Shown: positions 8,356-56,000 of the stretch, piece by piece
How positions within the stretch are numbered: the first letter of the stretch is position 1
How the letters are laid out: each line of letters starts with the position of its first letter
Origin: Candidatus Omnitrophota bacterium
GTDB taxonomy: Bacteria > Omnitrophota > Gorgyraeia > Duberdicusellales > Duberdicusellaceae
Reading direction: 5' to 3'
Assembly: GCA_016932855.1 (NCBI GenBank)
Contig: JAFGCB010000023.1
Coordinates: 4,825-68,824 of the forward strand
DNA: 64,000 bases
Notes under the pieces: generated by a model
Database searches by the model: none
The model's input: only the letters and a program-made list of their open reading frames with translations
What the model was told of the DNA's origin: nothing
Program-made: the position numbers and the translations under genes

Positions 8356-8360
8356 AATTC

Positions 8361-13175: not shown

Positions 13176-13179
13176 TATA

Positions 13180-13260
13180 ATATAATATGAAGTTCCTTAA
13201 TATTATATATGGCAAAAGGACTTAGATTATACCATAAAGAAAAGTGAATATTCAATACCA
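13180..13260 (-). promoter_or_regulatory. Candidate promoter/RBS region for the ABC-transporter operon
   Basis: AT-rich, with TATAAT-like hexamers (tataatataat) on the minus strand and an AGAGGG RBS just upstream of the 13175 ATG. Confidence 0.3.
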
Positions 13261-13342
13261 AAATATGGGCCTAAAAAGCCTTCTAAACCGGCTTCCAAGG
13301 CTTGAATTTCAAGGTATTTTAAGAACTTTTCCTTAAATCCTG

Positions 13343-13708: not shown

Positions 13709-13714
13709 CGACGA

Positions 13715-13749
13715 CTAGACTTACGGAGGTCGTAGACCGACGTAAGTCT
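13715..13749 (-). promoter_or_regulatory. Second hairpin (10-bp stem) directly upstream of the PilZ RBS
   Basis: tagacttacg ..15 nt incl. ggtcgtagacc.. cgtaagtcta. On the minus strand the sequence aggagg lies immediately 3' of it, then the PilZ ATG at 13708. Confidence 0.3.
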
Positions 13750-13763
13750 ATGTCGGAGTTGAA

Positions 13764-13788
13764 CCCTTGACATCGAAGATGTCAAGGG
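13764..13788 (-). terminator. Perfect 11-bp-stem/3-nt-loop hairpin overlapping the GIY-YIG gene stop codon (candidate terminator or attenuator)
   Basis: cccttgacatc gaa gatgtcaaggg. No clear U-tract follows on the minus strand. Confidence 0.3.
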
Positions 13789-14060
13789 CTAACATAAACT
13801 GACTTAGAAAATAAATTAATCATCCTCTCTATGGTTCTCTTCCTTGTCTTTCCGCCTTTAAATTGTCTTTCTCGTCTAAGGGCCTTCGATCGCGAATCAA
13901 ACTCCTCATAATAGACTAACTCTAGAGGCCGCCTATCCTTAGTAGATAAAACCTGGCCCTTTGAATGCCTATAAAGACGCTGGGTTAAATTGTTTGTATG
14001 ACCGTAATATTTCATGCCATCAGCGCATTGTAAAATATATAAATAATAAATTGATTTCAT
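13782..14060 (-). CDS. Small GIY-YIG nuclease-domain protein
   Basis: SIYYLYILQCADGMKYYGHTNNLTQRLYRH matches the GIY..YIG..R..H core, followed by a conserved E. 92 aa. Starts 26 nt after the giant-gene stop. Confidence 0.85.
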   Translation of the reverse strand: MKSIYYLYILQCADGMKYYGHTNNLTQRLYRHSKGQVLSTKDRRPLELVYYEEFDSRSKALRRERQFKGGKTRKRTIERMINLFSKSVYVSP

Positions 14061-14086
14061 AGCAAACTATTGCGGTTTTTCTTCCT

Positions 14087-26000: not shown

Positions 26001-29000
26001 CTTAACCTCTCCTCCTGCGATTTAGCCATAGAGCCTGCTACCTGCAAGCATCTATCGGCCATAGATAAATCACTTGCTGAATACGCTTTATCGGAATAAA
26101 CAAAAGCTATTAGTTTATCCGCTACCTTGTCTCTGTATATCTTCTCTAATTCTAATCCCTTCAACACCTTAAGAGCCTTAATTCTTATGAGCCTATCTGC
26201 TGGTTTATATGCATACTTGTTAAATCCCAATATACCTAAACTTCCTGCTATGGCCTCAAAACAGCCGAACAATATTTCCCTACTATAACCAGTAAGCCAC
26301 CCTATAAGCCTGGCTTCCTTAAAAGCAGGTAATAATGAGTCTTGAATAACAAGCAGGCTCAATTCTCCTAAAATGGCTACTCCGGATAAAACAATAAAAG
26401 TTTTACATATGATTTGCGTGAGCCTATCCAGCGATTGAATAAAACGGGAACGAATTAAGAGGCTTGAGCCCTTATCAAGATAATCTAAATAAAAAAGCAT
26501 TTTGGCGTAATTCGTCGCTCTCTTTACCACCGCTTCTTTACGGTAAACTTTATTACCTAAATTATTTGTAATTGAATTGACTATTCTTTCTATGTTTCCA
26601 TCGTAAATCACAGACAGTCTGTTTAAACCGAGCTTGTTTACATACCCCTTAAGCGTAGAATCGGAAGTTTTCTCATTCGCAGTCCAACCCGTCCTTAAAA
26701 TATCAACAAGGGTAAAAAAGTTTGCAAGAACCTCGAGTATGTTTTGGTTTTTAAGATACGGGAGCTCTCTTTTTACATACTCACTATTCGAACTAAGTAG
26801 CCCCGCTAATTGATCTTTTCCGTCTAAAGCATTATTCTTCTTGAGCAGGGGCGAGCTGATTGGTTTATCCTCGAGTGAGAAAATAAAAGCGTCCCCTTTT
26901 ACTGAACTTAATTTAATCGGGCTTGAAAACTTACCTTCGGAACTTACCTGTGCTTGCTCAATTGTAACCTCTGTCAATAATACAAGCTCACCGAATTCCT
27001 TGAATCCCCTCAAGGAACCGATATCGCGGAGCTGGCCAAAATGATTATCCTTTTCGTCTTTTGCTCTCCGGTTAAATTTAGTCCTGGGTTCAAAAACAAG
27101 AAAAATCACATTATTGCCGATAAGCCTTGCATAACCCTTGAAAGACCTTTTGGCAAAATAAAGACGCTTAACATCTGTGCCCCAAGCTGGCGGAATTTTA
27201 TGCCTGTAGTGCGGTTTATCAGGGCCTTCAATAAAACTTTTTACCTTTACTTCAATCTCTCTAATCGGAAATTTCTCTAGGACTTTCGCTTCAGTCCAAT
27301 TGCTATCAATAAACCAAACCTTGTATTCCTGCCTAATAGGCTGCTTTCGAGTTATTTCTTTTTTAGCCTTATACGAAGTCTCTAGATTTTTCTTATAATC
27401 CAGCAATGTCTTGTTATTTGCAATGTGATAGTTAAGCTTAAGCCAATTACTTATCACCTCAAACACAGTCTTAGAAAAAATATCAGCAACCTCCTCAACT
27501 TCTATCTCTTTCCCAAGCGCCTGGATTAAGCTCGTATAAGAAGGTGCTTCGCTGATTATCTCCTGCATTTTATCCTCAGTTATCCTTTTTAGCTTAGCTT
27601 TGACTTTCGCCTGCGCAGCCTTTTCTTCCCTGCTTACTACATGAATAACTGCGCTTTTGGGACTGCCTATGACAAATTCTGGCTTCTTTATAGTGGGCAT
27701 TATTGAAGCAGGCTTTACCTTAATAGACGACTTTATTAAAGGTCCCTCGCAACTTTTATTTTTACGAAGCATAAAAATTCTGATGAGCACTATTCCTGCG
27801 GCAAGGCCGCCGATTGATAAAATAAGTATTGGCCAAGTCTTAGAATCAGCGTGCTTCTCAGGCCCTTTCTCTTCCTGCATTAACCTAGCTTGTTCTGCTA
27901 CTAATGGTATTCTGTCCAACAAAATCGCCAACGATCCGATCGCTTGAGCAGGATTTTCTTTAAAAAGGTTGATATATTCCTTCATATATGAATACCTAAT
28001 ACAAAGTAAACATCCCTGCTCAGCGGTCATAACCATTCTCTCCCCGTCTATAACAAGACTCTGGTCATTGACAATCACAACCGCGAGGAGTTTCTTCAAA
28101 GATGCAGGCTTAGCTATAAGAATTGCCTCGGAGAGTAATTCAATCGGGTTTAGCTCTTTTACATATTGCTGATGTTCCTGGAACATTTGCTTAAGCACCG
28201 GACCGATAGGAAGACCTGTTGTCTTGCCGAAATAATTTTCCTTTTTGCTTCCTAAAAGCCAGTAATGATTCTCAATGCTGGAATCAGGCAAAATAATAAG
28301 TTGCTTAGCCTTTTTTACTGCGCCATCCTTACTCACCTGAATATTCAAAGTAGAAGGCGCAAGCAGGATAAGTGCTGATACTATGGTCAAAACCCTTGTA
28401 CAGCCTTTAATAGACGGGAAATGTTTGGCTCTAAACGAAGAGAGCGGCGAGCTGATCCCGTTATTAGCGGATAGTAGATTATCGTTATGAGCTTCACTGA
28501 ACGCTAAACGTCCTTCAACAAGTTTATGATTATCTACAGAAGGACCCTGAGTATTCCCGAAGGGCTCTTCGCTAACCGCTAAAGAAGCCACCGGCGAGCT
28601 TAAACCTTTATCGTCGTGCGTACCGCTCGTCCCGTGTCCCGAGACTTCGGGATTTACGGGACGTACTGCGTACCGTGAAGGTAAGCCGATAAAGGCAATT
28701 TTTCCACCAAGCCAAACAAATAATCCTAAGCCCGTAAGAAGACCGGGTAGTGGAATACAGCCGTACATACCGGACAAAAACCATTCCACAAGAGGACCAA
28801 AGCTAAGGGCAAATAAAATAGTGACTCCTAAAAAGCCAACAGTTTTATTCAATATCCTTGGATGGCTTAAGCTTTCCCAGATTAATCCGCCTATCCCAAC
28901 CGCCGTAGCTATATCAGCTATGTTTATAGAATAAGGAGAATTATATATATTCTTAAATATCTCCAGGTAATCTACCTGATAACCCAACGAAAGTGTTATC

Positions 29001-32000
29001 AAATGCGCAGTAAGCCCGCCTACAAGCAATCCGAATATCGCTTTTGCCTTGCCCTGGCCGATAAATTCCTTAACCTTATTCACCGTCCAAGCTGAAATAA
29101 TTAATACCCCGGCTGTAGCCAGAACATCGGCCAAGCTGATATGGCCTGAAAAAATATGGGTATTTATCTCAAGCCAGTTCTTTGCTAGTCCAAAATGCGG
29201 TTTGAATAAAGCTACCGTTAATTTTGTAATTAAATCAACACTTGCAACGACTGCAGCTATTACTCCGCCCTTTCTTATCCATCCATTGCTTCCAACCGGA
29301 CTGCTATCTATTGAGCTTGTCACCGGACTGCTGGATCTAGACTTAACTGCGATAGAAAAGTCGGTTTGTTTTTGACCTTCTTGAAAATAAGTAACTCCGC
29401 TATGAAACTCATCTTTGGACCAGAAGATTGCGTCGCCTTCGCCTTCATTGTATATAAATAGGCCGCCGTCTTTATTAGTGTTGCGAATAATCTTCCGGAC
29501 GAGCCCCTGATTAAGCTGAGGCTCTTTTCTAAAGAAATCCGTCAAACCGCGCATGGAAATAATGTCGTATTTTTCTTTAAAAACAAGGGTCCATTGCTCT
29601 TTACCAAATAAATCAACATATCTGTATTCAAAGCTAAAATCAATGCTTTGGTGTTTCCTGTTCTCTTTAAAAAGCCGGGCCTCTTGAAGATGCCACAAAG
29701 ATACATCATGCCCGATTACATCAACTTTCCAGTTTATCTTATCGATATCACCTTCTTTAAGTAGTGAATTTTTAATTACCCTCTCAAAGAATGAAAACTC
29801 ATAAAATTTAATTTTTCTATCATTTCCCACCCCGATAATTTTCAGCGATATATTAAAATCATTCCGTTCTTTCTTTATTTTTATTAGTTGCCCGATAAAT
29901 TTTTCAAGTTTCTTATCAGTTCTTGCCTCAATAGGCCAGGCATCACCGGACCAGCCTTTATTTAGTGCTAACCCCAGCCTTAAACCCAATAAAGTTAGCT
30001 CTCTCTCAATTTCTTCACCAGAAGGCTGCATAAGAAAATCCCTATATTCCTGCAAGTTAGCTTTTTGAGAATTCTCAGCTTTTAGTAACAGATAAGGCAG
30101 AAAATGGACTTCTGAAAACTCAGGAAAATATTCCACGCTTCTTCGAACATTGCCTGAATCTACAAGATACTCCATAATCTCTCTGGCTGTCTTTTCTTCT
30201 TCTGTAAGCGTCCTGCCTAAGTCAGCCCATAATATGTCCTTACCTAGCGGCGAGCTTATACGGCACGGATATCTGTAAACTATCGTAGCGGCGATGATAT
30301 TTTCGGATATGATTAGCTTGCCTATAGCAATTTTTTCTGACGGACTCTGCAAGACAACAGCAAAACGAGCCCCCGGTCTTGCCTGCCTCAGTAATACCAT
30401 TCTTAAATAGTGGTTTAAATCACTCTCTGATGGACAGCAATCAGAAAGAGTAAACCAATTCCTGGGACGACCCTTAAGTTCAAAGTTCCTAGAAGAAATA
30501 ATGCCGATAGAGTCGATTTTTCCCTCACGATACAATGAAAGCACTTTTCTAACAACCTCATCCAGACTTAAATTACATACGGGCTTACCCTGTTCCCCAT
30601 ACAATTTCAACGGCGAGCTTACCCCTTTTCCTAGAGTTACAAAAGTGTTTGAATCACTTTTGTAACTTTGTGCCAGGGGCGAGCTGATTGGCTTGCCATC
30701 AACGAAATAAATATAAGCGTCCCCATCTGTTACATAACTGCTTGAATAAGTTATGTAACAGATAGCGCACATAGTCAACCTTCCAGCAAACTTTGTTAAT
30801 GCGGTCTTAAGCGGGCTACTTACACTAATGCCTGTAATATCTACAATAACAGTAGCCATACCTATCTCCGTATCAGGTAAAACATCTTGATGCGGCTTTG
30901 TATAGCTAACGGTAAAACCGAAACGTATCTTGTCCTTGGCATACCCCGGAGTGGTACCGTAAAAAGCCGCTAACATCGCTATTTGACCACGTAACTCTGA
31001 ATCCAGGAAATCTCTGAAAAGCAGTGGATTATCTTCAACCTCAAAAACAAGCGGTGGTTCCGGCTCAAATAAATCATCTTTATACCTGTAGATAATCCGC
31101 ATTACATGGAACGGTTTTCTGCGATAGGAATCAAATAATTCTTGGACTATTCTTCCAAATGTAAAATCTGCTTCTGGAATACCGCTTTTACCACGCAGCT
31201 TCATAGGAGAGCTAGCGAAGGAATCTTTTAAGTATTTCGGCTTTAGCGGCTCCTCAGACCTACTAAGTGACGAGCTGATTGGCTTGCCATCAACGAAATA
31301 AATAGAAGCGTCCCCTTTTTTAAGCGAAATTCCGGTATCTATCTTTCTGCAGACAGCCCAGGAACTTGCATAACTCAATGAAGCTTGTCCTTGTGAAATT
31401 AATAGGCCCTCCCAGGAATTACTACTTAAGCCTAGCCTAGCCAGGTGCGACAGCTGAAAATACTTCTTAACAACAGCAACATCGAATTTGATGCCGGTCA
31501 TAAGCATAAACCCTTGCTCAGAGACATCAGTGTTAAGCTTGCTCCAAAACTTCTCCTCTTCAGCCATTACGCCCAGCCAGCCGGGGAAACTGACAAACGT
31601 CAAATCAACTTCTTCATCATCTCTAACAGCTTCCCGGCAAAAATAATCTAAGGGACGTAAGGCCAAATAAATCTGTCTGTTTGAACTTACTCTGACCGTC
31701 AAAACGCAAGTTTCTGTTTTCGTAAGCTTGTCTTTTATATTGGACGGTGTCTCAATAAGCTCAAAACCATAACCACTGGAAATAAGCGCGGGGAAATTCT
31801 GCCAGTCTTTACATATAGGGTCTACTAAAATAATCTTCTCAAGACTAGGAAACAAATTGACGATTATCCGCAAGTAATCTTTTCTCGGACCGTGCGCTAC
31901 TGACAAGGCGAGCTTGGGCTGAAACTTCTCTTTCTCAAAGAATCCCTGCAAGGATTGGTACCAGGGAAAATCAGAAAAGAAGTCCCAAATATAACCGCTA

Positions 32001-38000: not shown

Positions 38001-41000
38001 TTATAGCTAACTCCTAACCTTTTGATTAATACGGGAAAATTAAGCAAAATTTTTGTTTCCGGGCAAATACCTTCAAATACTATATACTCTTCTGCTATTC
38101 GATAAGCAGCTAAAAATCTTCTTTTCTCTTTAAAGGCGCCTGATAGACTGCTCATTGGTGTAGTAAACAAAATCCCTAAGAATCTTAAAAACATTATTCC
38201 TAATATTTTTAATTTAGAAAAAGATGATATTTTTTCCAAATCAGCAATATTAATATGGCTGGCCTTCTCTCTTATCAGAGAATCAAAATATTTTTTTGAT
38301 GCACCCAGTTTAAAAATCCTGTTACATAAAGATACATAGCTTTGTCGCATGCTGCTCAACCAAAATGCAAATACTGAGCGCTTTATCTTAACCACAATAC
38401 CCTCGCCCTCAAGAAGCCAAGCCGAACATTCCCAGCCTTTGCCTATAAATACAAGTGGCTTTTTAGAGGTAATCTTTAAAGGCGAAGAGGTAATATCATT
38501 GGCTGAAGACAGCCGTGATAATCTTATCGCATAAGTGCGTATATTGCTATTGTCCGGGGCAAGCATGTAGGCTTGCTGTGAATACTTTATCATCGGAGCA
38601 AAAAATACAGGATCGTTTGTTAAAACTAAGGCATGAGAAAATCCTCCTGATATTCCATATAACAAGTGACCTAGAATGCGGCCCAATGCTTTTCGATCCC
38701 TGTGTATTCCAAAACCAGCATCTACTAGCACCTTCTCGTCCACAGCTGTTTCGGCATCCCCGCTTAACCCTAAAAATTTATGCACATCTTCCCTGTGAAT
38801 GCTAAAATCCAAAATCTCAATCTTTGCATTGGCCAACAGACGGCCTAAAAATACATGGGGACTACCTTTCGGATTCGCAAAGTCTATAGAGGCTAAGCTG
38901 GAGCCATTGTTATACCCAAGTCGATCTAAGAGAAAATAGCCGAATAAATGACTCATAGCGCAGTGAGATAAGAAATGTTTAGTAAGCCATTTCCCTCCTA
39001 TCTCCATACCCCTTCCAAAAAGCTTGGCATCCTCATCTTCCAAGATGTTTAATAAAATCCCTAAATTATCGGCAAAAATGCTCTTAGCTTCCGGACTCTC
39101 GTCTTCAAAATAGTCTATTCCGCATCTGTAAGTACTGGCTTCGACAACGCTTGCTATATGGCCGTCTAAGCTATAATCCATAATAAAGGAATCGATAATT
39201 CCCAAGATTAAACCTGATTCATAGATTCTTTTTTTGTATTTTTTTATAAGCTCGGCGGGATTCTGATCAACGACAATTAATTTGGTAGGGCTGCAAAGAG
39301 CCAACGATATATTACTGACTACCGGCGGGCCGTTAATGACTCCTCTTTTAACAAACCAGTTATTTAAAACTGTATGTATATTTATAAATCTTAAAATTCC
39401 CCTATTGCTGCAAAATACCGCCTGCCTTACAGGTTCTCCTTTAAGTAGGCCGGAAAATAAGCCAGGGCTCTGTAAATTCAGACTCATCTTCTTAAACACT
39501 ATATCCGGCACAGGTAAGGGAGAATTTGACTGGTAAGGAATCTCACTTATTAGAATCTCCTGCGGCTTCTGTTTAAACCGGAAATGAAAACCGCAAAATT
39601 GCACATGTTCGTCTCTTACGGCTAGAGACCTTTCTATGGGCACAATCCGGATTACCTGAACAGGGATAGATGCTGTTGGCGAAGCGGATTGACTGTTTTG
39701 GATATCTTCCAGAAGAGAAATTACTGCATTAAATTTGTCATTATAAGATTTTGCTTTCTCCCGGCTGATATTGATTAATCTAGCCCAGGCCTGTATGCCG
39801 TTTTGAACTTTTTCCTTCTCCTCTAAATCTGTGATTGATTCAATCTTTCCTAAATTAGGAATCACCTCTTCTTTAAAAGGAATATGGTCAAGACATAACA
39901 CATGCCTAATTGAAAAAATCTCTCTTGTAATATCTCTGTAATCCTTAATAATACCTCGCTCAATTAAGCTACGTAAAGTCGTTAAAGCAGTCTCTACCTG
40001 CTCTTCTAGCTGTGTAATTATTCGATCTTGCGCTGGAGAAGAAAAGGTTGGGGATTCGGATTCTAGACTACCAGAAGACCAGCGGATAACAACCTCCCGA
40101 AAAAGAGCACGCAGAGCCAGAATCGCATCACGACGACTTACGAAATTAAGGGTATTTATAGCCTCCATGAAATTCTTATTTCTGGCTTGAGATTCACTAA
40201 GTCTATCAATTATCATTAGAATACGGTCTCTGCCGGAGCCTTTAAATTTCATAAAAGAACTAACTCTGGCTGATCCCATGATGATTTCAATGGCTGCCTT
40301 AATATCATCTCTATTGCCGGGTAAATTTATCAATTCATCCCCTAGTTCGTCTATATCTTTTATCCCGGAATACTTCTGCCGATAGGCCTGTTCTCCATCC
40401 CAGGGAGCAGACGTCCGTAAATCGTAGTCCCCAAGATTCTTTTGCGGAAAAAAGAGCAACGTCTCTTTCATCGACGGTATTATTCTTCTAAAGAATTGGT
40501 CGTAATCTTCTCCCTGACTGGTTACAATTTGACCTATCCGCCCAAGCCAATTATCCCTCCATATCACTTTATCAGCTGGAGAACTGGCAACCGGGGTTAA
40601 TTGATACAAAACACCCCGCTTTGTTCCCAGCGAACAAGGCACTGAAACAAACTTACAAGAAGTAGGCAAAACTTTACCGCCCTCAATAACCCTTTGTATC
40701 ATGACATACAAGAAAGGAATCTGGTCTGAATAGAAAATTTCTCCTGTTTTCGGGTTTCTTCCTCCCATAAATTCCGGCACGCTGAAAAGAATCGTCCCCT
40801 CGGCTCTATTTTTAACCCTGGCTATTCCTTCGACAATCTTGCCGATCTTATCAGGCCGCCAGGTAGGAGGAGCTTTAGAGGAAAGCTGGGCGTTAAGTTG
40901 ACTCGGAGTTATGACATCCGTAGCAACTACATGCGTAAATGCGCCTTTAAGAGTGTTTTGAATTTCGAATCTTGAAAAATCTCCCTCAATAAGATGAAAA

Positions 41001-44000
41001 CTGCCGCCTGCCGCCGAGATAGAAGATTTAAGCTCGCTATATCTTAGCTTCAATGCTGCTATGACTTCGGGTTTTTTCTCAACGCTTACGGCATTCGCTC
41101 CGAAAAGTGCAGCGATAAAAGAAAAACCGCCAAATAAGCCGCTTCCTATATCAAGTAAAGTATCCTTGGGTTTTATTCCCATGCTCTGCACAGTGTATCT
41201 GCCTCTTTCAAAAAGAAGCCCCTCATAGAAATGGCCGCCACCGTCAAATACCAGATCTTTCTTTTGCCATTCTTTCATCCAAGCCGCACCGGAAGGGATA
41301 TGCTGCACGAATACCCGGCGTATCTCTTCTTGAGCAGCCCTGCTGAGAGGCGAAGAACTTGCACCCGAAGTGCCCCATGCCGGTTCGTCTAACCCACCCG
41401 GTCTATAAGCCCTGCCGGTAAGTTCATCGATAGCGTAACCTTGACTTATTAAATCCTGCCGGGTCTGCGTGGATACGTATCTTTCAAATGGCCTTATCTT
41501 ATCAATATTATCAATCGGCGGCGGATTCCTATAAATACGGTCATCTCTATTCCTGTAAAACTCTTTCTCTATTTCCTTAAAACTTAAAGGAATACCTGCT
41601 TTAGCTAAATCCTCTTTGGTAAAAATCGGCTCATTAACTCCTATGGCCTTAAAGCAGTTTTCGCTTTCCGGATGTAATCCGGCTAAGACCAAGGCTGCGT
41701 ACTGGGTAAGATAAAGACGCGTTTCCGGATATTGCAGGGCCAAAGACCAGTAATCAGGGGGTGAAACTCCTACACGCAGAGGCCCAAGCACTTCTCCGGC
41801 TGCCCTCCTAATTACCGCCGGATCAAACATACGCAAGATATTTAAAGGATCATCATATACAGCGGTAACGCCCCTGGATATCTCCTCCTTAACAAGATTT
41901 CTTGCCCTATTAAGGTCCTCTTCTCCGTCTGCCTCCAGAATTCCGCGCACAAAACGATTGCTGGAAACTTTTATCAGCGCTTCATCCTCGTAGAGAAACC
42001 CGTCATAGAGAAAAGTCATAGGCATTTTAATTCTGTTCTTTGACTTAGGATGCTTATTGAACCTTTCATACAAATTAGGATGCAATAAAGGATTTAATAA
42101 TATATCCCTATCCGTAAGAAGAAGACCTCTGCCTATTTTTTGTACCGGCTGGTTAAGAAGAAGCACTTCGTAGCTGCTGTTTTTGAATCTAATGCGGCCT
42201 TCTAATAAAACCTCAAAGGACCCCCCTGAGTCCGAAGTCACCTTAACGGATTCTTTGGTGTATAATAGCGGCTTTAAGGAGCGGTTAGCAAGCTCCTTAA
42301 GCAATTCATCTAATGTATCAAGGGGCATCGATAAATGCAGATTCATTCCGACTTTAATCTCGGGGAATTCCTGAACTACGACCTGTATAATATTTGCAAG
42401 ATATTTTATCGGTAAGGTATCTACGATTTGCCCGTCGCTATTCATATGTCTATTTCTATGGAAAGCATCGCCGGTAAAACTTAAGATTATAAAAACCGGC
42501 TTTTTGCCCCTGGTTTTTCGCTGTAGGTTAGTTTGCCAGATTTCAGATATATTATCTCTTGCATCATCTAATGTTTTTGCCCAGAAACCGCTTGTGCCCA
42601 TGGTCAGAAAATCCGTTTTCGTTTCCAAAATAGCCAACTTGATAAGATCTTTTAAAAGCCAAGGGTCACCGCCGGTAAGAAGAGGCGGAATTCCTGCCTC
42701 ATAAGCCCAATCCAGGGCTCCCAACAACTCAGCCTTGCTTAAAACACCTCTTCTATACAAAAATCCGAGTTGACAATGCCGGCAGGGAAGAACGCAGCGG
42801 CCGGTAAGAACTATTACAAATGGCTCAAAATTGCCGAACATTGAATCTTTAAATCTATTGTTGAGTAAACCGATTATCTTTAATCTCTTCCTATCTAACC
42901 GGCTGTCAATGAAAGAATAGACGTACTTTTCTTTGGCGACTACGCGTTCTTTTTCATGCAAGTATTCCTGCCGGTTCCAGAGCTGATAATTATGCTGGAT
43001 GAGCTTGACTAAAGGATAGACTTGGGCCGCCTCGCAACCTGCGAGATATTCGCCAGCTTGAACAAACATCTCAAACCCTTCCGCGTTATCGATAATATGC
43101 TGGCCGATATAAACAAATCTCTGAAAATCGGAATCGATTTCGGCGATAGGGATCAACCATCGTAAATGAAAAGATCCCTCAAAACTTATCGAATCGATGA
43201 ATTCCAACTGCTTAGATCTGGGGATTTCTTCCCGCAAAAAGTTTACTGCATATAATAGCAAGGCTAAATTAGTAAAGGCTGGCTCTAATAAATCATCCTG
43301 CCCAATATTATGATTGACCATATCATTGAAAATTAAAAACGCCGAAGAAAAAACCCTATTCTTTTCAGAAAGGTATTGGTCTAAAGGATCCTGAATGGGT
43401 CCGGGTAATATTTCCTTTCCGGAAGCCCCGCTTGTACTTTTTGCTTTAATAATGGGTTCTACTGTTTGACCGGACTGGTAAAGTTTAATAAGCTCTCTTA
43501 AGCCTAAAGCCTTCTCACGCGGCTTTCCCATCTGCTTTCTAAGCTCTTGCTTTTTGTGTTCCTTTCTCTGAGTTCTAAGCTTCATCTGTTTCTGGGCTCT
43601 TCTTTTTGCCGCCTGCTTATTCTTCTTCTTAGCCGGGGAGCTTAAGGCCGTATCCTGGAAAATGGAAGATAGTGAGCTTTCTGCCTTAATCATACGGGAA
43701 GTTATTATTGTCTTTCTTATAAACTTTTTTATCTCTCTTAAGCTTGTTACTGCTTCCTGATGGTTCGGTATTACTATAATATCCTGGCCGCTGTTTATAA
43801 GCCTGGCGACCATTAACATTTCTTCGCTCTCTCTTCTTAGATACAGAAGCCCAAGACTTTTCGGACCTTTATAGGGCTGTAAAAACAACCTGCCGCTTGC
43901 TTTTTCAATCTTATTTTCTATCCGCTGTGTTGAAGAATAAAAAACAAAGCAGTCTCTTCCGCCTTCGCTTTTCAGACTGACTCCTCTTATCGAAAGTATG

Positions 44001-47000
44001 GAATTAGTAATAAAATCTGCATGCCGATTTTTTTTAAGAGGACTAGAAGATAAATTCCGTATTTGAGGAAGAATATTATTGAAGGAAAGTCTATTTTTAT
44101 CAAAAACATATATCCTCGTTATCGCACTTAAAGGAACGTCTTCTGCGGCCCTGTTGCAATCATCATACCAACCGGTTATTCTTCGCTTATCAAGCTTAAC
44201 GACAACAGATATAAAGTTTTCCGTTGGGTATTCTCCTTCCGGCTCAAAGGCATAGGGTAAAGCTTTTATCGGAGAAGGATCAGTATCTATAAACGGCCTT
44301 ACTGCATGGGCAGTTACCCTTGAAAGAAGTAATCCTACTTTGGCAACCTCAAGTAAGTCTTTAATCGTTATCCTCATTCCCCGGTATCTTATATCTTGGC
44401 CTGTTTCCATTGAAGCCACAAGGCCTTTTCTTACCTTAAGTGAATTGGGCGGATTAAAATATTCCATATCCCATAAAAGTCTTCTTAATTCTTTCTCATC
44501 AGAAAAAATGCTGTCTTTTAATAATACTGAGGCTGATTTTAAAGCCTTTCTTCTTTTTCCCAAAGGAGAGCTGCCAGATGATGAAGCGGGGATTTCCGGA
44601 TATCGATATGAAAGATGGCTGGGGTTTCTATTCCGGTCGTATTTTGTAGCCTTAACCTCATTCTTTATAGCTATTAAAACTAAATCCGGTGCCCTATCCA
44701 CAAAGAAAATTCCCTGCGTTACTACGCCCGGGGTTATCTTAAGCATCCGCGCTGTCTTGGCAGGATTTATTATCATCTTCCTTGAGAAATCGGCATCGAC
44801 AATAATCCTTCTTTCACGGTCGCCGGGCCTGAATATAGAGCTATCATCGTTTCTTCGTATAGACACCTTACCTGCCCCCATAATCTTTAACATAAACTTA
44901 ACCAGATAAAAATAAGGCTGTTTTACCTCAAAGGGCAAAGAAAACTTGCCGAGAAATTCTTTCGACTTTTTACTTTCAGCGATAATAATTATCTGCCCTT
45001 CATCCTTTACCGCCCGCATATTTGCCAATTCATCGGTAAGGGCTCCTCCGCCGCCTTTGATTGCGTAGCCGTGACTGTCAACTTCATCTGCTCCGTCTAC
45101 GATAATATCTATGCCCAAACCTTTCGCTTTAAGCTCTTCAAGCTCCATTATTTCAAATCCAAGGTTTCCAAGTAATTCTCTGGTCCTTGGCGAAGAAGAA
45201 ATAACAATGATACTGTCCTTTATATCGCCGCAGAATATGTCTAATTCTTCAATAAAATGATTCCAGACATTTGTCCCGCTTCCCGCACCTAAGATCAATT
45301 TCTCGTTTAAATTCTTCTTTTTTAGGGCGGCCTCAAAGACGAGCTCAGCGGCATACTGCGAGACAAGGCGTTTCTCCTGCTCATAGTCTGAGAATTTTAA
45401 AACCCTCTTTGTTCTCTGAAAAACACTTGTTGCGTCCAAGGGCGATGAAAAAGCCTGAAGAATTATGACATCTTTATTTACTTTGCGAATATAACTTTCG
45501 GGGTAAAGACGGCGGGTTGGAGTATCTGTAAGAAAAGAAGATAAAGCGGCCCGGACACGGCTGAGGGACCATCCAGCCACGGAAGAGGTTACCCTCGGGG
45601 AATGACCGCGTCCGAACCGATTCAATACTATATTAAGATTGTTTCTTAGAAAATTAGGCAAGGAATATTTAAAGAAGAGGCCCGGGAGCGCTGGAGTACC
45701 ACCAGCCACGGTGAGGCCACTCCGGGGAAAAACGCTCCCGAACCAATCTAATACTATTTTAAAACTATTATTAAAAAAAGCAAAAGGAAGAATGACTAGG
45801 GCAGGAAGGGCGAAAGGGATAGAAGAATCAATATTAATTTGAGGTGGACTGTTTATTGATAAAGAAAGCCACTCGGAAACCTGAGCAAGACTTGCTGCCG
45901 TAAGTCCAGTGCCTATCCGGTTGCCTCTGTTATGCAACATTTTTGTTTGAAACAAAAGTGTTGCATTAAAATCGCCGCCCAGAGGAGAACTGCCGGAATT
46001 ATCTTCCGTCGGCAAGAGATAATCCTCAAGCTCAGGCCAGTCTTTTAAACAATGTTCAAAGAAATCTACAAATCGATTGCTTTCCATTCTCTCTCCGAAG
46101 GGCCCAAGCCAAGATTTTTCCAGTAAATACTGAAAATAGGCGCCGTCAACATAACCTCTTCTTTTACTGCCTATCTCCTTATCTATACCTAATAATCTAA
46201 AAGTATTTCTTACATCGCCTCTTACGGCAATATCATGCAATAAAACCATAAGATAAGCGTTGATGCTGTCAATCTTTACTGATCTTTTCTTGTTAAGAAA
46301 TTCGGATATTTTTTCAGTAAATGCAGTATTGTCAAACAGGAAAAATAAAGGCCTTAGCAGAAGCTCAGACTCTGATAAAGCCTTCAAAATATGCGGATAG
46401 AAGTGGTACAAAGCCATAAAACAGGCGTATTCATAAGGCACTAAGTCGGCAAGAAGAACCGCCTGGATATGGTGGGTGTCACTGGCTTCATCATAACGTA
46501 TGGAAGGCTTATTTCTTTCAATCGAATCGATGACGATATTTGTCTTAAGCTCTTTCTTCAACTTCGGCCGCCTGGGGAAGTTCTTAACTCTTGTATCCGA
46601 TTGCAGGAACAAATTCCTCGAAAGAAAATCAAAAATTCCCTCAAGCCGTGCCTTAAGCTGACCCTGCGCAAACTCGCCAAGGCTTTTCAGGTTTTGATTA
46701 TCCTTAAACTGAAATCCCTCTTCTGTAATAATAGCTTCGCCCAAATCAACCGATTCAAATTTAACTACTTTTTCGAAGACAGCAAATTCTTTATCCTCAT
46801 AAACTCTATCAATTATCACAAAAGCCGTCCGGTCGATTCCATCGATGACTATCGTTATCGTGGGAGTAAAAATAATATCCGGGGTATGCTTAAAAACGCT
46901 GAGCATTGACGGCCAGCCGGTCTGTTTATCTAATTCAATCGAGACGGTGGGATTAATTATGCCTCCGTGGGGCTGGGAAAAATGACAGACTTCTATGGGA

Positions 47001-50000
47001 AGCAGCTGACCAGCCTTAGATTTTAAACCAATCTCTTTTATAAAGGCCGAGCGTAAGCTATCCCAGAATCCCTCGATAGCCGGCCATTTGTTGATAAACG
47101 AACGGCTAGGCTCCCAGCGGGCCCAGTCTATTATAGCCCTGTATCTACCGTTCTGGATCTCATCAAAAATTAAAGTATGATTTTTTAAAATCTTGAAAAT
47201 TCTCTCTTGGCAGCCATCGATGTTTTCCACCTCCGGCATAATACGAGAAATATTTACGGTAACAGCTATAAATTCAGTAAAGAAGCTACCCACAAATCTT
47301 TTATTAACCTCCTCCTTTACAAACCTCTCTGATTTTACTCCCGGGCCGAAGTGGAAAATCCAATGGCTGCGATCACGCTTCTTTATCTCGGAGCGCAAGT
47401 CATAGGCTATCGATTCTAGTCTTTCCTCAAACCTCCTTAATAACCACAAAGCGATTTTTTCTCCGTAGACAGAATCGTAGCTTAGGCCGTTTACAGGGTC
47501 TATGGAGACTATAAAATCTGAATTCCACCAGGGCATAAACTCCATCTTAACCGGAGAACTGGAAAAACCTTCAGAAATCGTGAATTTGTCGCGATTTTTG
47601 AGCAATCTTGATGCTATCCTTGAGACCGGACCGTCATTTTCAAGGTCAGCTCTGTATTTCAAGCTTACTTCCACAGGCGGAGCTGAAACAATATCAAGCA
47701 CCTGAACGGAAAAATTAAAGATATTATCGAGGCTACCTAAATCCCGGCCATGCTCAGCCATAATAAATATTCTCTGCAAGTAATCTTCAACCAGAAAGTT
47801 AATCCTGTCTATCTTTGTAACTTTCTCCATATCTGCCTTTTGGGTCCACCAGTTATAAAAGAAATCATAAGCCTCGCTGGAAGCCATCTCAGACAACTGA
47901 AGCAATATTTGCCTTACCTGCGCCAGCTCAGAAAATAAAGGCACAACTACTGACACAGCGACTCCCTTATTCTCTGCGGCAATTGGGGGCTTAAGAAACC
48001 CTAGCCGATTTTCAAAGCTTTGACTCCAGCCTTTAAGAAAAACCTCAAGGCCGTGAACAAGAAAAACTTTAGGCGACAATAAATCTGTCTTATATATTGC
48101 GCGGTATTCTTTCAATTCATAAGGAACAACTATACGCAAAGCCGGAGCTAAAACCGGGGAAAGAACTGATATACAACGGTAAAGTTTAGATTGCTTATCT
48201 GGATATCCCATGGAAATAAACTCTTTAAAGTCTACTGTAAGCATATTTAAGAAAGAATCTAGCCAGGCTCCTAGTTCTTTTGCGGACTTAACGCTATTAT
48301 CCTTTTCAAAAACCTGCTTAAGCCTTCCCGCCCAAAACGCGCCCAGAATATAAACTGCTCTTTGGGCTTCAAGCCCTGACACCAGTCTGGAACGCTCCTC
48401 CTCTTTCAATTCCGGCTTATCAAGAATAAACTGGATTATAGCCCTATGCCCAGCTGAAGTACCTTTTCCTTCAAAAATATTATTTGGGTATTCGCCGCTA
48501 AGGGTCGAGTTTAAATAATCTATATCGCCATTAATCTCTTCAACCGAATCATTATCTTGTAAAAATCTATAGACAGCCCGCATGCTCGACTCAAGAGACT
48601 TAAGAGGGGAGCTTATTTCTTTCCAGGTACCGGCTAATACATATACTTCCTTAATATAGTCTCTGGTGTGTTTGCCTGATTTTCTTCCTTGCAAAAGTTC
48701 CTCCATTAAATTCAGCACTTCCTCGGCTACCCTCTCGTCTTTAACTCCAACCACCTTAACATCTGCCCTAACCCCGTCAACCAAACAAAGCTCTATTAAA
48801 CTTACAATGTTACTCGGTGCTATTCTTATATATTTATCCGGGCCTGTCTCTGCGCGCTTAATCCAAATATCAGCATTGAGCTCGCTTTCGACCGTACCAG
48901 CAAAGTCCGTTATATATACGGCGTTTCCAGCGTGCTTTCCTTTTATATCTGCCTTTACAATAATCCTTCTACTGGCTTGAACCAAAGGCGAGCTGGTTGG
49001 CTGTTGCTTAATCGAAAAAACAGAAGCATCCCCTTTTTCTCTACCTTGCTTCATCGATGCTGTGGAGGAATTTTTTATTGTTATTATCCTTTCTTTGTTT
49101 ACCGGGCTTGAAGACTTCTTTTTCTCCACAAGATGGATAATGCCTCTTAGTCCGTTTATGCGCCAGTCGGGGTCTTCAGCAAACAGCTTATCCACCATAT
49201 TATCAGTAAGTCCGACAATAAGCTCAAACTTTAAGGTCCGCAAGGCCGCAAAGCTTGTCGGAAAATAATCGGCTAATTTTTCCAGCTTCTGGGTATAGGA
49301 CCAACACCTGTCACCTATAAGCTTGCGGTAATTAAGATCACCCTTTATTATAACCAGGTCTGATTGAGCCAAATCCTGCTTTAAAGGCCGGGGCATCATC
49401 CTGAAAGATAGCGGCCTTGTCCAGAATAATTCGTCCTTAAGAACAAGCTTATCTGTACGAATATATTCCCTTAAACGCCGGGCGAAATTCCTAGAAACAG
49501 GACTATCAAAGTATTCCAAGGCTTCCAAGAAGATGTAGACGTCTTTAACCAAAGCATCGGAAATAAACTGCGGCCTGTCCTTAAGATGTACGAAAACCTT
49601 TTCCACAAGCCTCAGTTTAAGAAGAAAATCAACCATGAATAAATCAAACATCAGTTCATGACCGAAATTATCGACTATAATATCAAGGCGTTTAATGCGG
49701 CCCGATACTAAAATCCGGGCAAGCCTCCAGGCATGGTTTTTAACCAAGTTCCTACTCCATGCCTTGGCTAGAATAAATCTCTTGGTTTTTTCTTCCATGT
49801 CTTTATCACTGCCGAAAATAAAGGAAGTGCTGCACAAATCAATACGGTTGCCCCAAAGCATGCAATTTACCAGATAAAAAGCGGCGTCAACGTCTTGTAT
49901 TCCCCTCTGAGAGGTAAGATTTTCGTAAGCATTGATAAAAATATTTATCGCACCTGTCTTACCCGGCAAAGTCTCTAATTTCCGCTTTTCAAAAGGATCT

Positions 50001-53000
50001 TTTTTATTCTGAAAATATCCTATGGCTTCGGCTACGCGTATAAAAAAATAATTCTCGGCAAAAAACGACGGTAAATCCCCCCAGCTTAAACCCCCAAAAA
50101 AACCGATAAATCCGTTCCATAACCGCCTATCAGGAATATCATGCATGAGAGGCTCGGGGTCCATCCCGCTCATTAGCTCTTTAAACAAGCGGCCCAAATT
50201 CCTGACCACGTCTCTAGGATATATATTGTCTATAACAATGGTTTCGATCATCGCAGGTAAATACTCAGTTACTATCTTTTTAGCAAAAGAGCCCGGCTCT
50301 GAACACATTATTAACGGTGGCTCTCCCATAGTATCATATGGCCAAACAGTTGCTTGACGGAAGTCCACAATCTCTTCCATTGACAGCAAAACCTTTTCAA
50401 AAGAAATAAGATTCTTAACATGTTTATAGCCTTTTTCTCTTATCTGCGTCTGGGTTATGTGATTGGATAAAGATATGAAAAGTGAATTCGCCTTTTCAGG
50501 ATCATGGCCTTGATAAGGAGAGATGAAGGCTGCCTGATAGAAAATAGCCCACCAGAGATTAGGAGAACCTCGTACGCTATTATGGCGGCGATAATATTCC
50601 ATGAATGTACGCAAGAAAGCATCATCTCTCGAATGTATGCCAAAAACTGTCTCAATTTGGGACTTAACAAATAAATTCCTGTAATCCTGCATGAATTTCG
50701 CAAGAAGCTTAGCAGCTACAACCTTATCTACCAAAAAGCTAAAAACTTCTTTTACAACCTCAAGATTTTCCGCACTTATAACCCCACCCTCTAAAATAAG
50801 GCTAACCTCATTAAGAGGCCCTAAAAGAATTGCAAACTCAGGCTCGTGAAAATAAAGGTAATCTCTGTGCTCGGGGTTTAAAAAATCCTCTTTAAGTATT
50901 TTCCTGGCAAGGAACCACTTATTGTTTTTTAGATTATGCAAAATTTTTGCCGCTTTTGTGATAAACTCTTCATTTCTATTATCAACGCTCTCCCGCAAGA
51001 CCGTAAGCCTTCCCCTCTGAAGACTTTCAACTATTGCCCTGCTTTGAACCATCCGCCTATCCAAAAATTTCCCGCTAAGCCTTAAAAGGCCTTTTGTCTG
51101 ATCTAACCGCCCAAGGCTTATCAATTCCCGGGCGTATTTAATAGTAGTCCTGGCCAGGCGTTTGTGCCTTATCCTTACCCTCTTTAGCTGCTTAACCAAG
51201 GAATCCAAGTCTTTTTCAATCGGCCCCGTTATGAACTGAATATCCCTAATATGGGTAAAAACTTCTTGGCAATCGCTAAGCCAGTTTATTTCCTTAAGTT
51301 CGCTGTCAATCTGATGGTCTACTGTTCTAAAAGCCTGCCATATACTTTGATAGGAAGCATATATATAGGTAAGCACCCAGGTGCCCCAAGGCTTAATCCA
51401 TTTGTAGCGCATCTGGCGCACTCGATACTGCCCGCTCCTTACGGCCACGCCCAAAAATCTAAATCTTTCCGAATCCCGGCTAACTTCAACTCTGTCATTT
51501 TCAGCATCAAGAGAAAATATTGCTGAAACCAATAGAGAATTGGTTACTGTTGCCGGAATAGCGTTAAGGCTTTTGTTCTCTTTAGCGGCAGTAATAAGGG
51601 CCGGTAGATTTTCCGGCTTAAGGGCTCTTTCCATTTGAACAACGACTTTATCGGGAATGGCTTTTTTATAACACTCGTCGTCTTCAATCCTATCTAGCTC
51701 ATCTTGAATTTTCCCGGCTAGGTTCTGAAGCATATTTCCTATTCTCCGCTGGGATTTTCCTCTTCTTTGCAGATAAGTCCGCTTAAAATCCAGGTAATAA
51801 ATCTTTAAGTTCCATTCCATAAGCAGTTCCTCAAGACGGCCAAGGCAGGCCAGACGTTTTAATGTTGAAACCGGGCTGGAAGATAACCCAGGCGTATCCA
51901 AGGAAGCCGGGCTTGAGAAGATAAAATTATTACCGAAACCGGATAAAGCCCTTCCGCTCATAAGCCCCACAAGGCTTAACTCTCTTATAAGCAACCCATA
52001 ACCGTAATCCAGGCTTCTATCCCATGTATCAAATAATTGACGTGTCCTCTCTTTTCCTTGGCTAAAAATCCTAAATCCATAACGGCTGACAATCCCGGTA
52101 TAAGTCTCAGGAAATGTCAGGACGTATTCTATATCTTCAAAAGGGTATCCCACGATAAACCCGCAAGCTTTAACCAAGTCAGGATTATTTACATCATCTT
52201 CATTTTCATCACACCACTGAAGAATATTGGTAATATTGTCTATCCCTTCGGGTTTATCGCCATTAGAGATTAAATCAAAGATTGAACTCCTAAGCCCTGA
52301 ATCGCTAATTCCGCTTTCCAACAAAAGATTACCTTCCTGCTTAAATTTCTCCGTAAGGCCTGGCAGAAAAACCGTAAATGAAGGAAGATAAAACAATAAC
52401 TCCAAATCTTTCTGCTCGTTTTGCAAAAGACCATGTTCATCGGTTAAAGGCGTTATATCAGGATCGTTATTTTTTTCATCCACGCACTGTATGTATCCCG
52501 GCTTTATGCCTAAGAAGACCGGAAGAACATCAGGATAAAGAATTAGCTGTTTTCTTTCTCTGTCAAGGCGGTTAAAGACTTGTTTTATGCTGTTCTGCCT
52601 CGACTGCGATATGCCCAGACTAATCCTCAACTCCTCCAGGTTTATTGGGCTGGAAGTCTTCGACTTGGGACTGCTTCCAGCCACAGGAAGGTTATTACGG
52701 GAAAAACCTCTGCCAAAACGATATGGCATAGCTTGCTTAAGAGGAGAAGAAGCTGTCTTCTGGATATCCTCTGAGGATAGAGATGATCCGGAATCAGGGG
52801 CAGGATTTTTTCTTCTGCCGGAAATTAGCTTTTGTATTAAATAAATAATACCCAAGGGCAAAGGCAAGAAAGAAAGGTCTGCTTTTGATGCCCGGCTAGA
52901 CTGTATGCTTTCACTTATAGCTTCTATGGTTTGTTTAAGAAATATACCGATCTGGCCGAGGCCTATAGCCTGAATTATATGGGCAGTAAGCATTGCGAAG

Positions 53001-56000
53001 AATATACTGTAATTTACCGCCAGAAAAAGGCGCCCTATATTTGTTTTTTTCTTTAAATAGATATAGGAAATCGCGGCACAAGTAAACCCTGTAATCACTA
53101 TCGGATTAAGGTCAGTCCAGTCGTAATGGTGAGGAATAGCAAAAAATCCGGTAAGGTATATAACCGTAGCCCAGAAACCTGCTGCCCAGTAATTAAACCA
53201 CTTCTTAAGCCGTTTAGTGAAAAACCTGGCTGTAAATACGAACAAAGGAATTGCTTTAAGAATAATAATTTCCCAGGTTTTAGCCTTAATACCGGCAACA
53301 GCCTCTTTTAGCCAGAGCAAACGGTCCTGCCTTATCTGGGGAGAATTTTCCTTTATGACCTCGATAGCCTGGTTTGAATTGTCAATATTTTGAATAATAA
53401 CATAAATCAGAAATCCTGCAACAGAAGCGAAGAAGACAAAACTAAAGAGGCGGCCTAAATTCCATTTAGTCTTCATCTTGAAGACCTGTTTTGCATTAGC
53501 CCGGGTTTTCTCATTAAGTAACTTCTTAGTCCCGGCCCTATACTCTAATTTCAACCTGACTTTATTAAAAAGTAGGCCTAAAAATCCTAATCCCAGCAAA
53601 GCCAAGGAAGACAAAACCAATGCCAGGCTGAAATTAAAAGATGGATAAATATTCGATAGGCCTATTGATCCGGCATATTTAGATAAATATAAGGCTATGC
53701 CTGCCAAGCCGATGGTGACAATAGAAATAATCTTGAGTTTACTTATCCCTTTATTAACCTCTTGGTTAGCTCTTTCTCCTTTCTTCTGGTGCCATTTAGC
53801 GTCATCTACCCCGGATCTTGTTTTGCGCAGAAACTCTTCGCTGCCGATCGCGAATCTTGCGTTTGCTTTTCCCCGGCGGAACAACCGCCAACACCAATAT
53901 AATAATAAAACTTCTGCCGGCCAAAGAGCATGTATGAACGCTGCCTTGGTTGCTATAGCCACTGCCAGCAAAACACTGCTGGCAAGAAGGACTATTACGC
54001 TTACTATTTTGATAGTTCCGTAGGCGCCTTCTGCCCAGGCTCTTTCTTTTCGCGAGGCATGCCTGAATCTGGCATTAATGTCATCATCTAAAGGCCATAA
54101 ATCTTTTGTCCTTACTCCGCCCACTGGACCTACCCTGGGAAAGACAAGAAGAAATCTTCTGCCCATGGTACCTTTACGCAGACCGAACTCTCTGCTCACA
54201 TTTTTCGTATGCTCTGACGTACGGCTGTTAAAGGCGAATTTACGCAGCAATAAGGCAAAACATACCCCCATAGTTAAGAGTGTATAGACAATATTACTCT
54301 GGATAAAAGCAACTATCGCAACAGGCAAACCAACATAGAGAACAGTCTGGCCCAAGACCCAGGCAATACCCCAGCTTCTATTGTCCCTAATCTCAATGGG
54401 GAACCGGCCGCCGCTAGTGTAATCACTGCGTTTTTTTGCCATATTTTCGGCATCCACGCTAATCCTTTTATTAAGCTTTCCCACAACCAAAGCAAGTAAG
54501 CTTAAGCCTCCTACTACTGTAGCCAATATCTTTGCTGCCTGAACAGCCCAAGATACCTTAATAGCATCAACCGCCGGCTGAACCTGGCTAATGCCTTCAG
54601 CAATACCTTCAGCCCCTCTAACCAGGGCCTCGGTTGATGTTTGCACCTCAGTGACCATCTTAGGGGATTCCAAACCGAAAATAAAATATAAAGCTGTTAA
54701 TATTCCCAGGCCCAAAATCACTATGCTTAATACCTTAAAGGCACTGGTAAAACCATCTCGTCTGCCGGCTTCTTCTCTGCCTTGAGATAAAGCATTAAGC
54801 GCGCCTACATCTCCTAGCCTCGCAGTCCTGCGCCAGGCTTCCTTAAGCCCAAGCTTCCTGAACAATTTTGCAATGGGGTCTAAAATCCCGAAAGTAACGC
54901 GCTTCTTAACAAAGCCCGCCTGGACCGAAACCGTACGCTTGAATATCCAGTTAATATATATGGAAAGAAGAAGAAATACTGTACCCAGGGCAATAAATCC
55001 GACCGGACTGGTTATAAAAGCTAAGAGTTTCTGCGGAGACTGAACGTGTAAGATTGCTAATCCCGATATAATCCCCAAAGTAAACAAGAAAGGTAAACCC
55101 GCAGGGTGCTTAAAGAACTTATACAGGTTAACAAATATCTTCTTAACGCAAAAATCAGAAAAACTTCCCAGGCCCTGCCTTAAGCTAGGAAGGCTTATCT
55201 GTACTTTGGGTATATTAATTGATGGCCGCGATGTTTTTGGTTTCCGGATTTTTGGAGCAGTATAGACCTGTTCTGTTTTAACTTTTACCACGGGAGTTTT
55301 CTTAATCTTTCTTGCAGAGACAGTTTTTTCTCTTGCCGGCTTATAAACTTTAGACTTCCGAGCTATATCAACTTTGTAATCTGAAGGTAAACTTATTATC
55401 AGCCTAAGACAGGTTTTAATCGATTCGATCTGGGCTGCGTAAGGCTGGCTGACCCCAAGGGTAATTTCTATCTCCAGCCCGGATTCTTCGAAAATCTTAC
55501 TTGTTCCTCTGAGCACGCCTTGGGCTTCCTTAAATACATCGCTTTCGTATATTGCCCAGGCAAGCTCTCCAAGCCTATTGGACAAATTGCGCCTTATTTC
55601 TATGGCATCTTTGCCCGAGGAAACTTTAAATAAAGAACTCTTCAAGGACATGAAACTGTCCCGGAAATCATCATAATCAGAATTATAAGAAAAACTTCCT
55701 TTATAAGACCTTTTACTAAGCTCAAGTAAAGGCATAAGATACCAGATAGCTTCCAACATGCTCTCTATGCGCCATAAGTCGGAAAATTCCGGACCCTGCC
55801 CCAGCTCAATGTTCCTAAAGTCAGCGGCTACTTTTTCGCTGCTAAAACTTATCTTAAAAAGAATGAATTCCGCAAGCTCCCGGTAAGAGCTGAAGACACG
55901 CAGATGAAAACAATCCTTTTCTCCAAACCGGCTGTATGCGCTTTCCTTAACTGTTAAGGATTTTAAAAGCCGCTCGCTCATCTGTCTGTTTAGCGAATCT

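Follow-up and report, generated by a model that had tools for sequence, protein, structure and literature searches.

An EpeE-like radical-SAM module in a giant protein of an Omnitrophota bacterium

Introduction

Giant proteins of Omnitrophota exceed 10,000 amino acids (aa), carry many transmembrane segments and scattered enzyme domains, and are almost wholly unannotated. Radical S-adenosylmethionine (SAM) domains are already known from them. Radical_SAM is among their 20 most frequent domains (West-Roberts et al. 2023, bioRxiv 10.1101/2023.11.21.568195), and a 2026 catalogue reports the Pfam family Radical_SAM (PF04055) in 90 of 916 Omnitrophota long proteins, where the domain is read as lying on the cytoplasmic face (10.64898/2026.06.07.730766). 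Both preprints tally Pfam matches only, without subfamily classification. Here we describe a further example, a radical-SAM module within a giant open reading frame (ORF) on the minus strand of a contig from a Candidatus Omnitrophota bacterium (GenBank assembly GCA_016932855.1, contig JAFGCB010000023.1, positions 4,825 to 68,824). The window, i.e. the whole stretch of DNA that was analysed, comprises 64,000 nucleotides, and coordinates of the features described below refer to it. What is added to the existing tallies is the assignment to a subfamily, evidence that a free-standing enzyme is embedded from end to end, and a copy that falls below the Pfam threshold.

The described enzyme that comes closest to the module, both by profile and by fold, is EpeE/YydG from Bacillus subtilis (PDB 8AI1-8AI6; TIGR04078). 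EpeE is encoded in a small operon for a ribosomally synthesised and post-translationally modified peptide (RiPP), whereas the module resides inside a giant protein. For its reaction EpeE depends on the auxiliary [4Fe-4S] cluster of its T-SPASM domain and on Cys223, which serves as the hydrogen donor (PMC13012085). The SPASM/twitch maturases (anSME, PqqE, SkfB, CteB, SuiB and MoaA) belong to the same superfamily branch as the module by hidden Markov model (HMM) and by fold. A third group for comparison are free-standing proteins of the module's own family, which are introduced below.

Results and Discussion

Extent and motifs of the module

The boundaries of the module were obtained with a profile HMM built from 18 free-standing relatives only; the query and all giant-protein fragments were left out. 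This stand-alone HMM matches the giant protein once, at aa 6863-7474, and covers profile positions 14-580 of 584 with a score of 174 bits and an E value of 2e-55. By this end-to-end match the giant contains an entire stand-alone enzyme of about 610 residues, fused in frame. The module extends well past the 790-bp interval at 42050-42840 that had been flagged in an initial annotation of the window, and this interval is completely enclosed by a single minus-strand ORF. The ORF, the module and its principal elements are as follows.

14087-63967, minus strand: giant ORF of 16,626 aa, open at the right window edge, which hosts the radical-SAM module (ORF reading)
41546-43381, minus strand: complete embedded radical-SAM module, aa 6863-7474, with N-terminal helical region, core, Cys-free C-terminal domain and tail (profile of stand-alone relatives)
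41678-42940, minus strand: modelled part, aa 7010-7430, with a predicted (beta/alpha)6 core and a C-terminal domain resembling the T-SPASM domain of EpeE (AlphaFold, Foldseek)
42773-42796, minus strand: CVLPCRHC (CX3CX2C), the expected [4Fe-4S] ligands, aa 7058-7065, on the post-beta1 loop of the model
42662-42673, minus strand: GGDP, equivalent of the GGE-type SAM-binding motif, aa 7099-7102, where model strand E86-90 (beta2) ends; GG is invariant in the family alignment
42449-42481, minus strand: SFTGDAFHRNR, family signature on and after beta4, aa 7163-7173, which aligns to EpeE
41705-41725, minus strand: ETRLYLT, conserved C-terminal helix motif, aa 7415-7421

CVLPCRHC is the only CxxxCxxC motif in the whole giant protein, and the one GGDP follows 41 residues past the triad. 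Both motifs are present where the initial annotation had located them. For a protein of 16,626 aa with 131 Cys, 0.008 such triads are expected from the composition, and at least one triad arose in 0.77% of 20,000 random cysteine placements. A chance triad was therefore rejected on the basis of this probability (p ~0.008) in combination with the fold evidence given below. The three cysteines are also the only ones within aa 6979-7437, i.e. in about 460 residues, which would leave room for only one radical-SAM [4Fe-4S] cluster. An overlapping plus-strand gene was considered as well and rejected, since the overlapping ORFs on that strand are just 47-66 aa long.

Homologues and family conservation

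A word-indexed protein homologue search with the 501-aa domain as query gave no match, the same type of search with the family alignment returned only three distant stand-alone proteins, and phmmer with the domain alone against the PDB found nothing relevant. Exhaustive phmmer analysis of 1.84 billion cluster representatives revealed 38 relatives. Most of them are free-standing proteins of 420-750 aa, and several represent parts of long proteins. Two relatives, P0001 (5,684 aa) and P0002 (3,951 aa), are fragments of giant proteins and share 39-40% identity with the query across its 501 aa. When both were compared with our giant by BLAST, similarity was found only at aa 6838-7549 (36-39% identity), and the flanks share nothing detectable. 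That the module is the only part detectably similar to P0001 and P0002 argues for selection acting on it.

The free-standing proteins (P0003, P0005, P0007, P0008, P0010, P0015 and others) are homologous to the module from end to end, possess the same invariant residues and likewise have no further conserved Cys. They differ in being separate genes in varied contexts and in their identity to the query of 17-26%. The giant-embedded clade formed by the query, P0001 and P0002 is further distinguished by FHR(N/D)RH instead of FHQE and by GTSG instead of TTN(G/A) of the free-standing relatives. An insertion of about 18 residues is common to the query and P0001, but not P0002.

Conservation was analysed in alignment A1, which consists of the query and 25 of the 38 relatives (26 sequences). 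Invariant positions are C49, C53, G90, G91, A121, H161, D364 and R408. C56, S156, D158, P365, L409 and T412 are conserved in at least 90% of the sequences, with 96% for both C56 and D158 and at least 92% for L409 and T412 of the C-terminal helix motif. Conservation of at least 80% is reached in 34 columns, of which the query keeps 28, among them all eight invariant ones. Beyond the triad, no column of A1 has Cys in even 20% of the sequences. The signature at beta4 reads ISxDxFHQE in the family consensus and ISYDEYH in EpeE.

The assignment of the family to the radical-SAM enzymes is in accordance with the domain libraries. In A1, 23 of 26 sequences match PF04055, with a best E value of 5.8e-12. 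The model touched by most members in NCBIfam is rSAM_yydG (16 of 26). On the stretch of the query from the triad to GGDP, the weak NCBIfam matches, the strongest included, are all to radical-SAM families, such as NirJ, MoaA, KamA, EpmB and YydG.

A search for further embedded copies by two metagenome-contig scans with alignments A2 and A3 gave pattern matches only and no confirmed relative. The 4,647-aa long-protein fragment P0017 contains two separate CxxxCxxC motifs, at residues 1206 and 2943, so that more than one domain of radical-SAM type can occur within the same giant protein.

The genomic surroundings of P0040, P0003, P0008, P0010 and P0019, all of them stand-alone relatives, were compared, and no neighbour is conserved among these five loci. 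HepT-like/HEPN genes (L081, 7824-7964, and L085, 7967-8350) adjoin two distant free-standing relatives in unrelated genomes. This adjacency is probably a coincidence; it is absent at the other three loci.

Predicted structure and assignment within the superfamily

Structure prediction of the domain from its single sequence with AlphaFold was unusable (predicted local distance difference test, pLDDT, 36). With A1 as input, a model with a pLDDT of 86.4 and a predicted template modelling score (pTM) of 0.88 was obtained for aa 7010-7430, with six beta/alpha units. The triad is placed on the loop after beta1 (strand E41-46), and GG where beta2 ends. In the model, the sequence that precedes the core is helical, and apart from noise no Pfam match was found for aa 6440-7052 at E<=10.

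In a Foldseek comparison of the model with the PDB, the top matches are the EpeE structures 8AI1-8AI6 with an E value of 6e-11 and TM-scores of 0.72-0.76, normalised on EpeE, over about 400 aligned columns. They are followed by MoaA, SkfB, CteB, viperins, SuiB and anSME, and all 32 PDB matches at E<=0.001 are radical-SAM enzymes. According to the model, the Cys triad is part of a genuine radical-SAM fold and does not belong to a different one, and the radical-SAM identity proposed in the initial annotation is thereby upheld. The family profile matches YydG/EpeE (8ai3) in the PDB with an E value of 2e-17, in an alignment that includes the ISxDxFH motif.

Module and EpeE are alike in the core, in ISxD..H after beta4 and in the shape of the C-terminal domain. 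With 12-13% the sequence identity is low, however, and the module possesses an additional N-terminal helical region of about 190 aa. The auxiliary-cluster cysteines of EpeE as well as an equivalent of Cys223 are missing, with no Cys in aa 7066-7437, and the YPCC stretch of EpeE aligns weakly to YPGA in the family. A similar difference is observed towards the SPASM/twitch maturases. The family's C-terminal domain shows a DGxVY...GN pattern that resembles the SPASM signature, but the defining cysteines are missing from the family, and only one of the 26 members touches PF13186 (E 0.007).

We examined the subclasses of the superfamily on this basis. A SPASM or B12-binding extension, for which the initial annotation had proposed to look, was not found: by HMM and Cys analysis the triad provides the only Cys of aa 6979-7437, the family lacks any other conserved one, and Pfam revealed no B12-binding domain. 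The SPASM/twitch subclass was rejected because of the missing auxiliary-cluster cysteines and with PF13186 undetected in the query, and the B12-dependent subclass because no cobalamin-binding domain is present. Membership in the YydG equivalog (TIGR04078) was rejected too, as the query reaches 12 bits (E 0.11) compared to a cut-off of 300 bits. From sequence and model taken together, we assign the module to a putative, so far uncharacterised single-cluster family, which has EpeE-like architecture yet lies outside the YydG family.

Location relative to the membrane

Hydrophobic segments were identified by a crude Kyte-Doolittle scan (mean over 19 residues >=1.6). The scan gave 33 segments in the giant protein, so that the "dozens" of transmembrane helices initially ascribed to it are roughly right. 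About 25 of the 33 are grouped in three clusters, which span aa 2957-3716, 11569-12065 and 14367-14624. The features relevant for the location of the module are listed here.

52820-55099, minus strand: upstream hydrophobic (transmembrane) cluster, aa 2957-3716, about 12-15 segments (Kyte-Doolittle scan)
49187-50194, minus strand: full-length DUF89/ARMT1 damage-control phosphatase, aa 4592-4927 (PF01937, 175 bits; PDB 7t7n, E 2.5e-44)
44669-45205, minus strand: ribose-5-phosphate isomerase A (RpiA) domain, aa 6255-6433 (PF06026, 93.6 bits; PDB RpiA chains, E down to 8e-18)
27773-29263, minus strand: downstream hydrophobic (transmembrane) cluster, aa 11569-12065, about 8 segments, including a weak Peptidase_A8 match (Kyte-Doolittle scan; Pfam 21 bits compared to a cut-off of 25)

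The description of the domain as sitting between transmembrane clusters is true but loose, since the nearest strong clusters are about 3,150 residues upstream and about 4,100 residues downstream of the module. In the intervening stretch of about 7,900 aa (aa 3720-11560) no 19-residue window exceeds a Kyte-Doolittle mean of 1.75, and one of the hydrophobic candidates there is motif I of the methyltransferase-like segment described below. For the upstream cluster, positive-inside counts show the expected alternation in the first helices. They are ambiguous in the four weak segments at its end and were not used to assign a side.

DUF89 phosphatase and RpiA act on cytosolic phosphorylated metabolites. 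Both domains share with the module the same stretch without strong transmembrane segments, which fits a cytoplasmic location of the module. Such a location would be in line with the initial annotation, by which the domain must face the cytoplasm if functional, and with the way in which the 2026 preprint reads comparable content of giants (10.64898/2026.06.07.730766).

Proposed function and alternatives

We favour the reading that the complete module (aa 6863-7474) is a functional radical-SAM enzyme on the cytoplasmic face with a peptide or protein as the most likely substrate, and estimate its probability at roughly 65%. In this enzyme, the reduced [4Fe-4S] cluster would cleave SAM to a 5'-deoxyadenosyl radical, which would take a hydrogen atom from a substrate held between the core and the C-terminal domain. 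The reaction would proceed on the cytoplasmic face. As the nearest structural relatives are peptide-modifying maturases, the substrate would by analogy most likely be a peptide or protein segment, a preference owed to such architectural similarity only. EpeE-type epimerisation as known cannot be the chemistry of the module, because the auxiliary cluster and the hydrogen-donor cysteine are missing. The envelope-associated tailoring proposed in the initial annotation found no support: the free-standing relatives are of soluble type and have no conserved gene neighbourhood, nothing ties the domain to the envelope, and the downstream methyltransferase invoked in the same argument is no more than a plausible candidate.

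Several observations weigh against the favoured reading. The PF04055 score of the query, 17 bits in a context of 5,000 aa and 22.3-23.0 bits for the isolated domain (E 1e-4 to 1.7e-4), is below the gathering cut-off of 29.5 bits, and only profile positions 1-95 of 166 are matched. The query departs from the family at six well-conserved positions (S156T, Q162R, G221S, A272G, E279D and G329R). In the closest relative, P0001, the motif reads CRLGCRHF (residues ~1200-1210), with the third of the cluster cysteines exchanged for Phe. The AlphaFold model with A1 rests on a shallow alignment of 26 sequences. From the five differing neighbourhoods of the stand-alone relatives no genomic-context clue to the substrate emerges. 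Finally, TMHMM puts most domains of giant proteins outside the cell, in predictions that the authors themselves call unreliable (West-Roberts et al., 10.1101/2023.11.21.568195).

The alternative that survives best is a decayed or pseudo-enzyme, in which a fold derived from radical-SAM enzymes has been retained for a structural or binding role, without cluster chemistry. It would account for the sub-threshold Pfam score, for the six substitutions, which include changes in the FHQE signature, and for the Phe in P0001. The latter loss implies that embedded copies can decay, although the rest of the P0001 module is conserved (39% identity). It would also suit a giant protein of which about 8% of the 16,626 aa match known domains and more than 90% is unrecognisable. 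On the other hand, the three cysteines, GG, D158, H161, D364 and R408 are all kept in the query, and a triad that provides the only Cys in about 460 residues is unlike the outcome of drift. The identity of 36-39% that the module maintains among giants whose flanks share nothing detectable also speaks against decay, as does the retention of the triad in six of the seven core copies found in long proteins, P0001 being the exception. Overall, we regard a loss of cluster chemistry in the present copy as unlikely.

A second alternative is a functional radical-SAM enzyme whose substrate is not a peptide but a small metabolite, for instance a nucleotide or a sugar phosphate. It would belong to a metabolic assembly together with RpiA and DUF89. 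RpiA is found about 430 residues upstream of the module, with DUF89 in the same stretch, and family members also touch the models of viperin and MoaA, radical-SAM enzymes that act on nucleotides. In addition, PF04055 falls into a co-occurrence module of long proteins labelled "sugar metabolism" (10.64898/2026.06.07.730766). The structural matches to MoaA and viperin are, however, much weaker, with TM-scores of 0.3-0.5 compared to 0.72-0.76 for EpeE. Moreover, what the giant fragments P0001 and P0002 have in common with our protein is limited to the radical-SAM module and does not extend to the neighbours RpiA and DUF89, and the stand-alone relatives have no conserved metabolic neighbours. We therefore consider a small-metabolite substrate rather improbable.

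An EpeE/YydG-type epimerase that would produce D- from L-residues, either in a ribosomal peptide or within the giant polypeptide, is highly doubtful, because the agreement with EpeE in profile, whole-chain fold and the frequency of rSAM_yydG matches is opposed by the Cys-free sequence beyond the triad in module and family, by the 12 bits of the query against the 300-bit cut-off and, with the domain located inside a 50-kb ORF, by the lack of a separate precursor-peptide gene.

Starting from the favoured reading of a functional peptide- or protein-modifying enzyme, a bolder proposal can be made. The module and its free-standing relatives might represent a new single-cluster radical-SAM family with EpeE-like peptide-binding architecture and a T-SPASM-like domain stripped of cysteines, the module acting in cis as a post-translational modifier of the giant polypeptide. 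We think this improbable and offer it as speculation. If true, the modification could for instance be C-H functionalisation or epimerisation with a hydrogen donor other than cysteine, and the giant would be a self-maturing, RiPP-like megaprotein.

Whatever its substrate, the module leaves the known radical-SAM chemistry unchanged. It supports a view of the giants as strings of fused cytoplasmic enzymes anchored by transmembrane clusters, and not as surface adhesins. With its score below the Pfam cut-off, the present copy would probably be missed by a tally based on Pfam thresholds, although it is unambiguous with relatives and structure model at hand. Such tallies undercount these domains. With aa 6863-7474, a concrete and expressible fragment for biochemistry is available.

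Segment downstream of the module

The initial annotation had placed a class I methyltransferase domain about 500 residues after the radical-SAM domain.

40658-41245, minus strand: possible divergent class I SAM methyltransferase, aa 7575-7770 (motifs by eye; sub-threshold matches only)

By eye, LLDIGSGLFGG at aa 7604 resembles motif I, an acidic residue has the expected spacing from it, and the pattern GD...VVATDV is present as well. The database matches of the segment are all below the cut-offs (PDB 4iv8, PEAMT, E 0.013; Pfam DOT1, E 0.028; PCMT, E 0.13), and a word-indexed homologue search with it gave no match. The domain could thus not be confirmed with motifs by eye, sub-threshold matches and no homologues found; as judged from its sequence, a downstream class I methyltransferase is plausible.

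Just past this segment, at aa ~7737-7832 (~40470-40760, minus strand), 95 residues resemble residues 67-163 of ornithine aminotransferase. The match has an E value of 1.9e-5 for PDB 3ruy with a 301-aa query and of 0.003 for NCBIfam PRK04073. This stretch may be the remnant of a pyridoxal phosphate-dependent enzyme domain or a chance match.

Further features of the giant protein and its surroundings

The reading frame continues to the right window edge, as no stop codon interrupts the 33 bases that separate the listed GTG (63967) from it. The protein therefore comprises at least 16,626 aa, and its true N-terminus, with any signal peptide or SecA-like domain, may fall outside the window. A divergent SecA DEAD domain has been reported for most full-length giants, though not for all. 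In the part of the present protein inside the window no SecA DEAD domain was found: Pfam scans of all 16,626 aa did not find the SecA family at E<=0.01, with the N-terminus possibly outside the window.

Within the second of the three hydrophobic clusters, the weak match to signal peptidase II (Peptidase_A8/LspA) mentioned above is located at aa ~11570-11700 (~28870-29260, minus strand). It scores 21 bits, below the cut-off of 25, and spans the entire profile. Signal-peptidase-II content in giants is mentioned in the 2026 preprint (10.64898/2026.06.07.730766).

Near the C-terminus, the LysM domain noted in the initial annotation was confirmed.

14177-14266, minus strand: LysM domain, aa 16568-16597 (Pfam PF01476, 35.2 bits compared to a cut-off of 20.9)

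It belongs to the C-terminal ~2,000 aa past the last hydrophobic cluster (aa ~14624-16626; 14090-20100, minus strand), in which a weak HATPase_c match and two Fis-type HTH_8 DNA-binding domains (61.7 bits) were found as well. No transmembrane segment separates HATPase_c and HTH_8 from LysM, which would place cytoplasmic-type and extracytoplasmic-type domains on the same side of the membrane. PDB sequence searches with aa 1-3000 and 12000-16626 matched only an NtrC-type HTH.

The 64-kb window gave no match in tRNA and Rfam scans. Downstream of the giant gene, after a gap of ~900 bp without a called feature (13176-14086), a carbohydrate-uptake block is found at 352-13175 on the minus strand. The block consists of a solute-binding protein, two ABC permeases, an MFS sugar transporter, two GH-like proteins with TPR and a ROK/MarR regulator. 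The best 80 genomic relatives of the solute-binding protein are mostly from metagenome-assembled genomes labelled Omnitrophota, with identities of up to 60%.

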